Sequence record: PZ026127.1 | Length of the DNA: 64,000 nucleotides | Reading direction: 5' to 3' (one strand) | Origin: a phage | Shown: one piece after another, positions 27,282 through 46,765 of the stretch | How positions within the stretch are numbered: position 1 is the first letter of the stretch | Layout: each line of letters starts with the position of its first letter | Translations under genes and position numbers: made by a program | Notes under the pieces: model-generated | Told to the model about the DNA's origin: nothing | What the model saw: the letters and a program-made list of their open reading frames with translations, nothing else | The model's database searches: none

Positions 27282-27980
27282 ATGAAATTCTCTAAAGAAA
27301 CTCTGAACATTCTGAAAAACTTCTCCAGTATTAACCCAGGTATCATGCTTAAGCCTGGTAACACTATTCTAACTCGTTCAGTAACGGGTGCAAGTTATGG
27401 TGAAGCTACTGTAAGCGATACCTTTGATATCGAAGCCGCAATCTACGACCTGAACGGCTTCTTAAGTATTCTGTCATTGGTATCCGATAGTGCTGAAGTT
27501 TCAGTAAGTGAAGACCAAACCACTTTAATTATTAAAGACCAACGTTCAACTATTAAGTGGCCTATTGCTGACCCAAGTACAATTGCATTCCCAAGCAAAG
27601 CTATTCCATTCCCGGTGGCTGAAGTTATTTTTGACCTTAAAGCCGAAGATTACCAACAGTTGATGCGTGTGTCCTCTGGATTGAGTATTGATACATTTGC
27701 TATCACTGTAGACAACGGTAAAATTGTAATCAATGGCTACAAACAAGTTGATGATAAGGACCTGGCACGTCCATTGTATTCCTTAGTGGTTGCAGACCAT
27801 GATGGTCCTGAATTCAAATTCATTATCAACAAAACCAATATGAAAATGATGCCTGCTGATTACCATGTATTGCTATGGGCTCGTGGTGAAGGTCAGGATG
27901 CTCGTTTCGCAGCCAAGTTTGAAGGTTCACAAGCTTCTTATGTATTGGCTATGGAAGCAGGCTCAAGCCACTCGTTCTAA
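27282..27980 (+). CDS. 45: Sliding clamp gp45
   Basis: 232 aa; strong match to T4 gp45 (LKNFxxINxGIMLK, AAIYDLNGFLxILSLVxD, KWPxADPST, MKMxPxxYxxLLWA). Confidence 0.93.
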   Translation: MKFSKETLNILKNFSSINPGIMLKPGNTILTRSVTGASYGEATVSDTFDIEAAIYDLNGFLSILSLVSDSAEVSVSEDQTTLIIKDQRSTIKWPIADPSTIAFPSKAIPFPVAEVIFDLKAEDYQQLMRVSSGLSIDTFAITVDNGKIVINGYKQVDDKDLARPLYSLVVADHDGPEFKFIINKTNMKMMPADYHVLLWARGEGQDARFAAKFEGSQASYVLAMEAGSSHSF

Positions 27981-28546
27981 TGTACATTTGCTATCATAAT
28001 ACAATAACAAATACCAAAACTAAGGATGTCTACCATTATTTCGGTAGACACCGTGTTACTCCTGAAGAATATTATGGTACTGGTAAATTTGTTAAGAAAT
28101 GCAAACGAGAAAATGCTATAACTCCTGGTGTTTGGGAGTTTAGTATTGAGATTGTCCACAAAACGGATACATTTAAAGAAGCCAAACTTATTGAAGAGGC
28201 CCTTGTTAAAGAAGGTATTGCCAAGTATGGTTCACTTTGTGTTAATAAAGCTCCCGGCGGTCCGGGTGGCGTAGATTTCCACAGTGCTGAATCTAAACGT
28301 AAGATGTCTATCACCCGAACCGGAAAATCAAGAACATTTTCCGAAAGCCATAAGCTTAATTGCTCTAAATGGCAACGCTCTGAAATATGGCAGAATTATG
28401 AAGAGCTCCATAAGATTTGGATAGAACTTGGTATGCCTAAAAAGGGTAGATTTAGTACGCTTTTACAAAATTATGGATATAATTATTCTGCAAACGAATT
28501 GAATAAAATTGTTAAACATTTTAATGAGGAAAATAATAATGAGTAA
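27980..28546 (+). CDS. Putative free-standing GIY-YIG-type homing endonuclease (Seg-like)
   Basis: Inserted between 45 and 44; N-terminal YICYHNTITNTKTKDVYHYFGRH (GIY-YIG-like), PGGPGG, NUMOD3-like repeat SAESKRKMSITRTGKSRTFSESHKLNCSK. Confidence 0.55.
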   Translation: MYICYHNTITNTKTKDVYHYFGRHRVTPEEYYGTGKFVKKCKRENAITPGVWEFSIEIVHKTDTFKEAKLIEEALVKEGIAKYGSLCVNKAPGGPGGVDFHSAESKRKMSITRTGKSRTFSESHKLNCSKWQRSEIWQNYEELHKIWIELGMPKKGRFSTLLQNYGYNYSANELNKIVKHFNEENNNE

Positions 28547-29516
28547 AGTGGTAAATGGTTTAACTATTAATGAAAATGACTTCATGTGGGAACAGAAATA
28601 TCGTCCAGGTACTTTATCTGAGTGTATTCTGCCGGCGCATGATAAAGAAACCCTCCAAGCCATTGTTAATAAGGGTCTAATCCCTAACATTATCCTAGTC
28701 TCTGCTTCACCAGGCACAGGTAAAACTACCGTAGCTAAAGCATTGTGTGCTGATACAAATTCAGATATGCTGTTTGTTAACGGTTCTGACTGCCGTATTG
28801 ATTTCGTTCGTAATGAACTTACTCGTTTTGCATCTTCCAAATCTATCGAAGGTAAACGTAAGGTAATTGTTATCGACGAATTCGACCGCGCCGGTGTTGC
28901 TGAAGCTCAACGTCACCTTCGTTCGTTCTTAGAAGCCTATTCCTCAAACTGTTCTGTAATTATTACAGCAAACAATATTGATGGTATTATCGGCCCACTT
29001 CAATCCCGTTGTCGTGTTATTAAATTTGGTGAAGCCACTCCGGCCGACCAAACATCCATGATGAAAGAAATGATTCATCGTGCTGTAGCAATCTGTAAAA
29101 ACGAAAATATCGAAGTCGAAGACCTTAAAGTTATTGCTGCCTTAGTTAAACAAAACTTTCCTGACTTCCGTAAAACAGTTAACCAACTGGACCGTTACTC
29201 ATCCAGTGGTAAAATCGATACAGGCATTTTGAGTATTGTAATGAATACCAATTCGCCTATCGATGAAGTAGTGGCTGCACTTAAAGATAAAAACTTTAAA
29301 GAACTCCGTGCATTAGCTCCACGTCATGTCAACGATTATTCCAACTTTATTATGTCGCTGGCTAACGAACTCTATGGTAAATTGCCTGGACCAAGCATTG
29401 TTAGAATGTACGAAATTGTCGGTGAAAATAACCAATACCACGGTATTGCGGCTAACCCAGAAATTCACATGACTTATCTGTTCATCCAACTTGCTCTGGA
29501 GCTCCAATGGCTATAA
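28539..29516 (+). CDS. 44: Clamp loader large subunit gp44 (AAA+)
   Basis: EQKYRP N-terminus as in T4 gp44; Walker A SPGTGKTT; Walker B VIVIDEFD. Confidence 0.9.
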   Translation: MSKVVNGLTINENDFMWEQKYRPGTLSECILPAHDKETLQAIVNKGLIPNIILVSASPGTGKTTVAKALCADTNSDMLFVNGSDCRIDFVRNELTRFASSKSIEGKRKVIVIDEFDRAGVAEAQRHLRSFLEAYSSNCSVIITANNIDGIIGPLQSRCRVIKFGEATPADQTSMMKEMIHRAVAICKNENIEVEDLKVIAALVKQNFPDFRKTVNQLDRYSSSGKIDTGILSIVMNTNSPIDEVVAALKDKNFKELRALAPRHVNDYSNFIMSLANELYGKLPGPSIVRMYEIVGENNQYHGIAANPEIHMTYLFIQLALELQWL

Positions 29517-45320: not shown

Positions 45321-45839
45321 ATGGCATACTTTAACGAATGCGCAAACCTGATTGATGGTGTTGATAAAGCTGAGGAAGCTTATTTTAATGCTCTGATTCA
45401 TGAAGATAAAGACCCTCTGCAAGTTATGCTTGATATGCAGAAATCTTTACAGGTTCGTTTGGCTAATGACCGTGAATATTGTTACCATCCGGACAAATTA
45501 GCGACAGCCGGTGATGTTGTTGCTTGGATGCGTGAACAGAAAGATTGTATTGACGATGAATTCCGTGAACTTCTGACTTCCCTCGGTGAAATGTCTAAAG
45601 GTGAGAAAGATGCATCTGCTGTATGGAAAAAATGGAAAGCCCGTTACCCGGAAGCACAAGCCAAACCTATTTCAGAAATGTCTCCTGAAGACCAGCTTGA
45701 AATTAAATTTGAACTCATTGATATTATGCACTTCGTATTCAATATGGCTATTGGCCTGAATATGTCGGCTGAAGAAATGTTTAAACTTTATTATCTGAAG
45801 AATGCTGAAAACTTTGCAAGGCAGGACCGTGGCTATTAA
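45321..45839 (+). CDS. 56: dCTP pyrophosphatase gp56
   Basis: 172 aa; very strong match to T4 gp56 (MAxFNECA, LQVMLDMQ, CYHPDKL, WMREQKDCIDDEFRELLTSLGEM, KWKARY, YYLKNxENFARQDRGY). Confidence 0.93.
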   Translation: MAYFNECANLIDGVDKAEEAYFNALIHEDKDPLQVMLDMQKSLQVRLANDREYCYHPDKLATAGDVVAWMREQKDCIDDEFRELLTSLGEMSKGEKDASAVWKKWKARYPEAQAKPISEMSPEDQLEIKFELIDIMHFVFNMAIGLNMSAEEMFKLYYLKNAENFARQDRGY

Positions 45840-46497
45840 GGCTAAGTTTTATAGAACTTATTTGATAAAAATTAGGACGCCGAAAGGTGTCTTTTGGTAT
45901 GGTGGTAAACATGAAACCTTTATACTAAATCCAAATAAAGATAGATATCCAGGTTCTGGCAAAATCTTATGGAATATGTATAAAAAGTATGGTCTAAAAT
46001 ATAAAATACGTTGGTTTGTAGGCCACCAAAATTTAGAAGAATCTTTTAATCATGAAAGACTTTTAATAGCCAAAATAAGAGAAAAGCATCCTAACGAATG
46101 CTTGAATATATTACCAGGTGGCGCTGGCAGCGAAGGACATAAATGGACTGAAGAACAGTGTATAGAGCACAAGCTTAGATTAAATAAACCTGAAACTAAG
46201 ATTAAAATGAGGAAGGCTCAAGCTATAGCTCAGAATAGGCCTGAACGTAAAGCTCGTCAATCAGAAATAATGAAAGAGTTTTATGAGAATGGTGGGAATA
46301 AATTAATATCTGAAGCCACTTCTAAAGCTCAACGAACTGCTCCTCATTGGCATGAACCATTGAAAAGCGAAATCTATAATATTTGGCTTTCATTAGGTAA
46401 ACCAACTACAGGTCCTGTAGTCAAAGAACTTAAAGGTAAATATGACGTTACCGCAAGTGCTCTCAAAAATTTAATATACTCTTTTAGAGATATATAA
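45802..46497 (+). CDS. Putative free-standing GIY-YIG-type homing endonuclease (Seg-like)
   Basis: N-terminal YRTYLIKIRTPKGVFWYGGKH, LPGGAGS, NUMOD3-like HKWTEEQCIEHKLRLNK; overlaps 3' end of 56; start uncertain (ATG 45802 or GTG 45829). Confidence 0.5.
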   Translation: MLKTLQGRTVAIKAKFYRTYLIKIRTPKGVFWYGGKHETFILNPNKDRYPGSGKILWNMYKKYGLKYKIRWFVGHQNLEESFNHERLLIAKIREKHPNECLNILPGGAGSEGHKWTEEQCIEHKLRLNKPETKIKMRKAQAIAQNRPERKARQSEIMKEFYENGGNKLISEATSKAQRTAPHWHEPLKSEIYNIWLSLGKPTTGPVVKELKGKYDVTASALKNLIYSFRDI

Positions 46498-46500
46498 ATA
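46493..46500 (+). promoter_or_regulatory. Late promoter (TATAAATA) for soc
   Basis: Exact TATAAATA about 30 nt upstream of soc ATG. Confidence 0.5.
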
Positions 46501-46531: not shown

Positions 46532-46765
46532 ATGGGTGGTTTCGTTAATATCAAAACCTTTACACATCCAGCTGGTGAAGGTAAAGAAGTTAAAGGTACT
46601 GAGGTTTCGGTTCCGTTTGAGATTTATTCAAACGAGCACCGTATTGCAGACTCTCATTATCAGACTTTCCCTTCGGCCGTTGCAGCCTATACTACTGTAG
46701 TGACTGATGCAGCCGATTGGCGAACTAAGAACGCAGCAATGTTCACGCCGACCCCAGTAGTTTAA
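46532..46765 (+). CDS. soc: Small outer capsid protein Soc
   Basis: 77 aa; VNIKTF and HYQTFPS motifs as in T4 Soc. Confidence 0.75.
   Translation: MGGFVNIKTFTHPAGEGKEVKGTEVSVPFEIYSNEHRIADSHYQTFPSAVAAYTTVVTDAADWRTKNAAMFTPTPVV

Follow-up and report, generated by a model that had tools for sequence, protein, structure and literature searches.

A probable Seg-type GIY-YIG homing endonuclease gene at the junction of replication genes 45 and 44 in T4-type phages

Introduction

Several free-standing endonuclease genes of phage T4 are known to be joined to the expression signals of their neighbours. The genes segG, segA and segE carry embedded promoters, nrdA/mobE show a stop/start overlap, and half of the T4 free-standing endonuclease genes have poor initiation regions; embedded signals of downstream genes favour the retention of the endonuclease gene (PMC2988022). 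The T4 Seg enzymes also cause localized marker exclusion (PMC2988022; PMC1564403). Our literature searches found no report of an endonuclease at the 45-44 junction, whether in Dhakavirus, in Gaprivervirus or in other relatives of T4.

Here we analyse a gene at this junction in a 64,000-nucleotide stretch of phage DNA (record PZ026127.1), which is called the window throughout. Over this region the identity is 98% with Escherichia phage LQ5, 96-97% with Salmonella phage SHP1 and Escherichia phage MX01 and, where sequence is shared, 92-98% with many Dhakaviruses (JS98-like T4 relatives). An initial annotation, made from the sequence, had proposed a homing endonuclease of the Seg type at this position.

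Results

An open reading frame that overlaps both of its neighbours

The ORF list of the window contains an ATG-started frame of 188 aa at 27980..28546 on the + strand, flanked by genes that Pfam and PHROG identify as 45 and 44, so that the gene stands free between them, as had been claimed. The features of the locus are as follows.

27282..27980, + strand: gene 45 (sliding clamp), upstream neighbour (Pfam DNA_PPF, 3.9e-14, and gp45-slide_C, 1.5e-34; PHROG 223)
27980..28546, + strand: free-standing Seg-like GIY-YIG homing endonuclease gene, 188 aa (ORF list, PHROG 314, profile search, hhalign to T4 SegE, dN/dS)
28526..28541, + strand: translation initiation region of the essential gene 44, GAGGAAAATAATAATG, inside the last endonuclease codons (E-E-N-N-N)
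28539..29516, + strand: gene 44 (clamp-loader large subunit), downstream neighbour (Pfam Gp44_lid, 2e-36, Gp44_C, 2.2e-29, and AAA, 7.8e-17; PHROG 168)
28539..28583, + strand: gene 44 codons 1-15, as the variant that accompanies the endonuclease, MSKVVNGLTINEND... (alignments, N-terminal translations)

The TAA of gene 45 (27978-27980) and the ATG of the ORF (27980-27982) share one base (TAATG), which bears out the overlap described in the initial annotation. That annotation also held that T4 has no gene here, and indeed the T4 45-44 junction is a 50-nt spacer with no intervening gene, both in the annotation and in the sequence of AF158101. A second overlap, at the downstream end, had not been mentioned. 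The gene 44 ATG lies at 28539, as placed by alignment with T4, JS98 and SP18, 8 nt past the GAGGA at 28526-28530, and the final 8 nt of the ORF (ATGAGTAA) overlap the start of gene 44. The last five sense codons and the stop of the ORF thus extend across the initiation region of gene 44 and eight bases into that gene. The Gaprivervirus SP18, which lacks the endonuclease gene, has the same 16-nt string as its native initiation region for gene 44; the T4 counterpart is GAGGAAATTATG. The gene 44 ribosome-binding site within the endonuclease gene resembles the T4 gene 44 initiation region, which contains the RegA operator.

We considered whether the ORF could belong to gene 44, as an extension at its N-terminus or as another start. 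This was ruled out, since the two frames differ and the initiation region at 28526-28541 is conserved with the gene 44 starts of T4, JS98 and SP18. Nor is this a chance ORF, given homologues of 55-98% identity in independent phages and dN/dS values of 0.15-0.34 in the sufficiently divergent pairs.

Because no Shine-Dalgarno sequence precedes the ORF ATG, translation probably begins there by termination-reinitiation from gene 45. The T4 late promoter TATAAATA occurs four times in the window and nowhere within 15 kb of the gene, and we found no dedicated middle or convincing sigma-70-type promoter nearby, the sigma-70-like sites being weak matches to the consensus. The likeliest arrangement that we infer is low-level translation by reinitiation at UAAUG, with co-transcription of the gene with 45-44-62. 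RNA folding was not significant for the 5' junction (z −1.96) or for the gene 44 initiation region (+0.5), and we therefore make no claim of hairpin-regulated translation.

The coding region contains a stable hairpin at window positions 28025-28052, UGUCUACC-loop-GGUAGACA, with 8 contiguous pairs across the codons D-V-Y-H-Y-F-G-R-H (the 'YIG' strand). Judged by eye, the Bp7 and VR20 alleles can form it too, through G-U changes. With a z of just −1.96, the hairpin may simply result from the conservation of these codons.

A diverged GIY-YIG domain with a NUMOD3-like linker and a helix-turn-helix tail

Searches with the single protein returned little. Neither GIY-YIG model of Pfam (PF01541, PF19835) matched it even at E<1, and the same was true of the Bp7 and VR20 alleles; NCBIfam and a phmmer search against the PDB gave no match, and hhalign of a shallow 5-sequence profile to I-TevI was negative. 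The only Pfam match was to NUMOD3 (PF07460) at aa 100-116, with an E of 0.068 and 13.5 bits against a cut-off of 20.4, and is therefore sub-threshold. PHROGs, on the other hand, assigned the protein to phrog_314, 'homing endonuclease', at 6.5e-16.

A word-indexed protein search found 4 close homologues only, and an exhaustive HMM search was used to go further. The profile of the ORF and these four homologues, run against 1.84 billion representatives, retrieved 498 proteins, and 91 relatives among those that span the N-terminal half were aligned. Pfam recognises many of these relatives: SegE_GIY-YIG matches 45 of the 91, GIY-YIG 32 and NUMOD3 63. The 5-sequence profile aligns to T4 SegE, which is experimentally characterised and itself passes PF19835, with an hhalign probability of 96% and an E of 3e-9. 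The alignment of the 91-sequence profile with the I-TevI catalytic domain (sequence verified against PDB 1mk0/1ln0) has an E of 2.5e-5.

The last alignment pairs Y5 with I-TevI Y6, Y20-F21-G22 with Y17-V18-G19, E72 with E75 and N89 with N90, so that counterparts of the metal-binding Glu75 and of Asn90 are present. In the 91-sequence alignment Y5, G22, Y31, G33 and G35 are invariant, Y20, E72 and N89 are found in 90 sequences, and the H24 position is H, R or K in 87; the window protein carries all of the residues that the family conserves. The leading Gly of 'GIY' is missing (Y-I-C-Y), as it is in most relatives. The I-TevI helix with R27 and H31 falls opposite a gap in the hhalign alignment, where the Seg-type family has the invariant loop Y31-x-G33-S/T-G35. 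Arg27 is essential in I-TevI. R23 and R25 are present in the window protein and are not conserved in the family, while H24 provides a basic position two residues after the Gly. These alignments identified no Arg27 equivalent, and H24, R23, R25 and Y31 are candidates for its position; the gap opposite the helix is a family-wide Seg-type trait, shared with the active T4 SegE, which does not single out the window protein.

An AlphaFold model built on the 91-sequence alignment has a mean pLDDT of 91 and shows a three-stranded antiparallel sheet with flanking helices, which is the GIY-YIG fold. The protein can be divided into three parts.

27980..28270, + strand: N-terminal GIY-YIG catalytic domain, aa 1-97 (key residues Y5, Y20, G22, H24, E72, N89, G93-G94)
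28277..28378, + strand: linker with NUMOD3-like helices, aa 100-133, SAESKRKMSITRTGK / FSESHKLNCSKWQ (sub-threshold Pfam NUMOD3; family profile against 1i3j)
28385..28543, + strand: C-terminal three-helix DNA-binding module (helix-turn-helix, homeodomain-like), aa 136-188 (predicted structure; no Pfam family)

The N-terminal domain consists of a strand (2-11), a second strand (17-25), the loop Y31-x-G33-T34-G35, a helix (36-47), a third strand (52-62) and a long helix (65-86). The linker region of the family profile aligns weakly, at E 0.008, to the NUMOD3 helix of the I-TevI DNA-binding domain (1i3j), and its helices presumably contact the DNA minor groove. The C-terminal 50 residues are predicted, with pLDDT >90 for the helix-turn-helix, as a three-helix bundle like the Myb, homeodomain and transposase helix-turn-helix domains.

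The GIY-YIG-like motif of the initial annotation is thus recovered by profile, structure and residue conservation, including the catalytic residues on alignment, but is missed when Pfam or NCBIfam is searched with this one protein. The NUMOD3-like motif stays below threshold in the window protein, reaches E 0.006-0.008 in the Bp7 and VR20 alleles and is significant in the 63 relatives mentioned above. Both motifs have diverged too far to be called by the standard Pfam models from a single sequence. By the tests available, which are profile, transitive and structural rather than thresholds of curated models, the window protein is a Seg-like GIY-YIG free-standing homing endonuclease of T4-type phages. 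Annotation pipelines that use the standard GIY-YIG models overlook its branch.

Several of the profile matches cover the C-terminal three-helix module alone, which belongs to no Pfam family. This module of ~55 aa (28385-28543) is common to Seg-like GIY-YIG proteins and to the HNH protein MobD (RB5 mobD, L006, 1201-1515). DNA-binding modules are known to shuffle among homing endonucleases, and the occurrence of the module in both MobD and SegE-like proteins fits this behaviour.

The window contains a second Seg-like ORF, of 231 aa, at 45802-46497 (+), between gene 56 (dCTPase, 45321-45839) and soc (46532-46765). It occupies the T4 segF position, is matched by the 91-sequence Seg profile at E 2.4e-26 and has no Pfam match. 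A late-promoter motif, TATAAATA (46493-46500), lies at its 3' end, just before soc.

A rare gene at a fixed site

We searched 50,697 phage records by tblastn and found homologues of at least 60% identity in 11 records, which represent seven phages: LQ5, SHP1, MX01, Bp7, PSD2002, vB_EcoM_005 and VR20. In all seven, and in two metagenomic relatives (64% and 55% identity), the gene is at the 45-44 junction. The remaining matches are below 40% identity and are Seg-like genes elsewhere, for example beside uvsY or tk. A scan of IMG/VR returned only VR20 itself.

The gene is absent from 42 of 51 close Dhakavirus records, and within Gaprivervirus it is carried by VR20 only (2 of 34 records). T4, JS98, ABTNLS3, QL01, WG01, IME08 and SP18 have the allele with the spacer alone. 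PSD2002, with the gene, and WG01, without it, belong to one ICTV species (Dhakavirus wg01) and have 99.7% identical gene 45 sequences. The comparison with relatives thus showed an ORF that is not conserved at its site, and this absence from T4 and most close relatives, together with the GIY-YIG fold, the conserved residues, the NUMOD3-like linker and the helix-turn-helix tail, supports the Seg-type assignment of the initial annotation.

The gene product is labelled a 'hypothetical protein' in MX01, VR20, PSD2002 and SHP1 and 'unknown' in Bp7, the LQ5 record is unannotated, and in vB_EcoM_005 the copy is annotated as part of the gene 44 CDS. Gene 44 of Bp7 (L003 1841) is annotated from an upstream ATG (MRKIIMSK...) within the endonuclease gene, probably a mis-annotation. 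The VR20 endonuclease (L004 2983) is annotated probably four codons too early (MENKMSY...), and the 5' end of those codons probably provides the GGAG ribosome-binding site. One metagenomic copy (L010 3001) has a GTG start directly after the gene 45 stop (TAAGTG).

Filled and empty sites compared

In Dhakaviruses that lack the gene, gene 45 is followed by a 60-nt spacer that consists of a GC hairpin (GGGAGG-ATAT-CCTCCC), then TTGGAGTATAATGTAAAAAC and lastly the initiation region of gene 44, which opens with MLTVNNNEFMWEQ. The layout is alike in SP18 and T4, with a UUCG-loop hairpin. In the three empty spacers that we compared (L001 1282-1341, L013 797-854, L016 2868-2917) a GC-rich hairpin comes right after gene 45. 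A TATAAT-like element follows the hairpin in Dhakavirus and T4, and TACAAA in SP18.

The window has the endonuclease gene in place of the hairpin, the spacer and the first 8 gene 44 codons, together with another gene 44 start, MSKVVNGLTINENDFMWEQ, which is like that of Gaprivervirus (MTTVINGLTVNESD) and unlike that of Dhakaviruses without the gene. At the protein level, gp44 of the latter begins MLTVNNNE..., compared with the variant N-terminus listed above for the window. In VR20 the hairpin is retained upstream, the gene is inserted directly past ...CATGGAG with its own GGAG ribosome-binding site, and its 3' end continues into the native gene 44 sequence AATGAGGAAAATAATAATG; the C-terminal N-E-E-N-N-N of the protein is therefore translated gene 44 leader.

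These comparisons refine the initial proposal of an insertion. At the Dhakavirus locus the insertion is not a simple one, the hairpin spacer and the first 8 gene 44 codons having been replaced by the element's own version. The Dhakavirus copies carry a short foreign piece of gene 44, a co-converted flank, as co-conversion predicts.

Mismatch between the alleles and their flanks

Between the window and Bp7, gene 45 is 97.8% and gene 44 99.4% identical, in contrast to 73-82% for the endonuclease gene. The synonymous divergence (dS) is 0.835 for the endonuclease, 0.09 for gene 45 and 0.033 for gene 44, a difference of about ten-fold or more, and the divergent block is sharply delimited, at ~27990-28500. 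The opposite is found with MX01, where the endonuclease differs at only 10 of 567 positions while gene 45 is just 92% identical; the shift in divergence at 27947-27980 marks the 5' junction. The gene 45 flank of the window is 99.3% identical to that of ABTNLS3, which lacks the gene, with no differences in the final 40 variable columns ahead of the junction (27761-27947), and the PSD2002 flank is 99.7% identical to those of WG01 and QL01, which also lack it.

Since alleles and flanks are mismatched in both directions, the history of the gene is uncoupled from that of its flanks, which speaks against plain vertical inheritance with losses. In comparisons between genera the endonuclease genes are 62-76% identical at the nucleotide level and genes 45 and 44 are 65-75% identical. 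The gene has thus diverged between genera much as core genes have, which indicates that its association with the site is old, and an early presence with repeated later losses could explain some of the pattern.

Selection and decay

The dN/dS of the endonuclease gene is 0.18 between the window and Bp7, 0.15 between the window and VR20 and 0.26-0.34 against the most distant copy; the value of 0.41 between the window and LQ5 is based on very few substitutions. For genes 45 and 44 it is 0.04-0.17. These ratios indicate purifying selection on the endonuclease gene that is weaker than on its two neighbours.

In vB_EcoM_005 (MK295203, L005 1285-2721) endonuclease aa 1-156 are fused in frame to gp44 (from ...LNGLTINEND), and the product is annotated as a 478-aa 'clamp loader subunit'. 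The deletion has taken out the helix-turn-helix module along with the ribosome-binding site, start and opening codons of gene 44. The fusion may be either a stage of decay, with the endonuclease captured as an N-terminal extension of gp44, or an assembly error in a short, 155-kb record.

It could be argued from these data that the gene is decaying or inactive, and that it is kept because its 3' end holds the ribosome-binding site and start of gene 44, which makes a clean deletion hard. The position of the gene 44 initiation region inside the ORF speaks for this, as do the vB_EcoM_005 3' deletion, which would exemplify decay at the locus, and the dN/dS values, which exceed those of genes 45 and 44. 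We nevertheless consider it unlikely, because the family-invariant residues are all intact, the three-module architecture is predicted with high confidence and dN/dS remains well below 1 across a large divergence. Moreover, one allele has recently switched its flank background, for which activity is required now or in the very recent past.

Discussion

The ORF is most probably a free-standing GIY-YIG homing endonuclease gene of the Seg type, as the initial annotation had proposed. The setting of homing would be a mixed infection with a related phage that bears the plain 45-44 spacer. The C-terminal helix-turn-helix and the NUMOD3-like linker would bind a site in or beside the spacer or the 5' end of gene 44, and the N-terminal GIY-YIG domain would then cut both strands, with the 2-nt 3' overhangs expected of GIY-YIG enzymes; the candidate site (TGGAGTAYAAWGTARAAAC) lies within or close to the spacer or the opening codons of gene 44. 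Recombinational repair would copy the endonuclease gene, with a short 5' stretch of gene 44, from the donor, whose own allele is presumably immune, since its spacer and first gene 44 codons are replaced. Expression would come from co-transcription with the 45-44-62 replication operon and low translation through UAAUG reinitiation, and simple deletion would be disfavoured by the absorption of the ribosome-binding site of the essential gene 44.

We see little reason to go further and regard the gene as functionally interlocked with the replication operon, with its translation slaved to termination on the abundant gp45 message and the gene 44 ribosome-binding site supplied by it, instead of as a mere passenger. 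On this reading the vB_EcoM_005 fusion, if real and expressed, would bring a GIY-YIG/NUMOD3 module to the replisome clamp loader and would mark a step in which a homing endonuclease is being domesticated as a replication protein. The reading seems quite improbable to us. A domesticated nuclease or DNA-binding protein that does not home, and that either excludes competitors by cutting or modulates the 45-44-62 operon, is more improbable still. Such a role would suit a gene that lies within an essential replication operon and is translationally linked to it, and localized marker exclusion is known from the T4 Seg enzymes (PMC2988022; PMC1564403), but a beneficial function is not expected to be so rare and patchy (seven phages in 50,697 records), exclusion through cleavage and repair is mechanistically homing, and our searches found no evidence of a regulatory role. 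Least credible of all is an ancestral 45-44 gene with vertical descent, many losses and no horizontal movement, which would account for the constant site and the core-like divergence between genera, but not for Dhakavirus alleles with a dS of 0.84 within flanks of 0.03-0.09, for near-identical alleles beside 92%-identical gene 45 sequences, for a single well-formed T4-like hairpin spacer in place of varied deletion scars in phages without the gene, or for the foreign-type 5' end of gene 44 in the Dhakaviruses that carry it.

With homing as the preferred explanation, the type of element, a Seg-like GIY-YIG homing endonuclease, is already known; no concept is changed and a specialist would not be surprised. 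What is new is a 45-44 homing site in a core replication operon, occupied by a diverged branch that curated models miss and whose copies are unannotated. The locus offers a compact natural series for work on the length of co-conversion tracts, on target-site immunity and on the life cycle of an endonuclease gene: it has two diverged alleles, a copy in another genus, a decayed fusion and, within one species, empty sites. PSD2002 and WG01 form a convenient natural pair for homing work.

Comparison with known systems

The closest characterised relative is T4 SegE (27% similarity over 96 aa). The two share the N-terminal pattern Y...Y-I/F-G-x-H...Y-x-G-S/T-G...E...N-x-x-P-G-G-x-G-G, and both are free-standing, lie between conserved genes and have a NUMOD3-type linker. 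The SegE-like proteins of IME281 and VPA32 align over almost the full length, including the C-terminal module. The identity to SegE and the SegE-like proteins is low and the sites are different, inh/uvsW or uvsY in their case and 45-44 for the window gene; the window protein alone falls below the Pfam SegE_GIY-YIG and GIY-YIG thresholds.

I-TevI provides the closest structure (PDB 1ln0/1mk0 for the catalytic domain and 1i3j for the DNA-binding domain), at 14% sequence identity. It is encoded in an intron (the T4 td intron), whereas the window gene is free-standing, and the window protein has no zinc finger and carries the Y-x-G-S/T-G loop in place of the Arg27/His31 helix. The resemblance to T4 MobD, a putative HNH homing endonuclease, concerns the C-terminal ~55-aa module and part of the linker (34% identity, E 3e-12), whereas the catalytic domain of MobD is HNH (weak Pfam HNH match) and that of the window protein GIY-YIG. 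In its genetic arrangement the window gene is like T4 segF and segG, which are also free-standing and intergenic beside an essential gene and have signals of the downstream gene embedded in them, with the difference that a ribosome-binding site and start region, those of gene 44, are embedded here and not a promoter.
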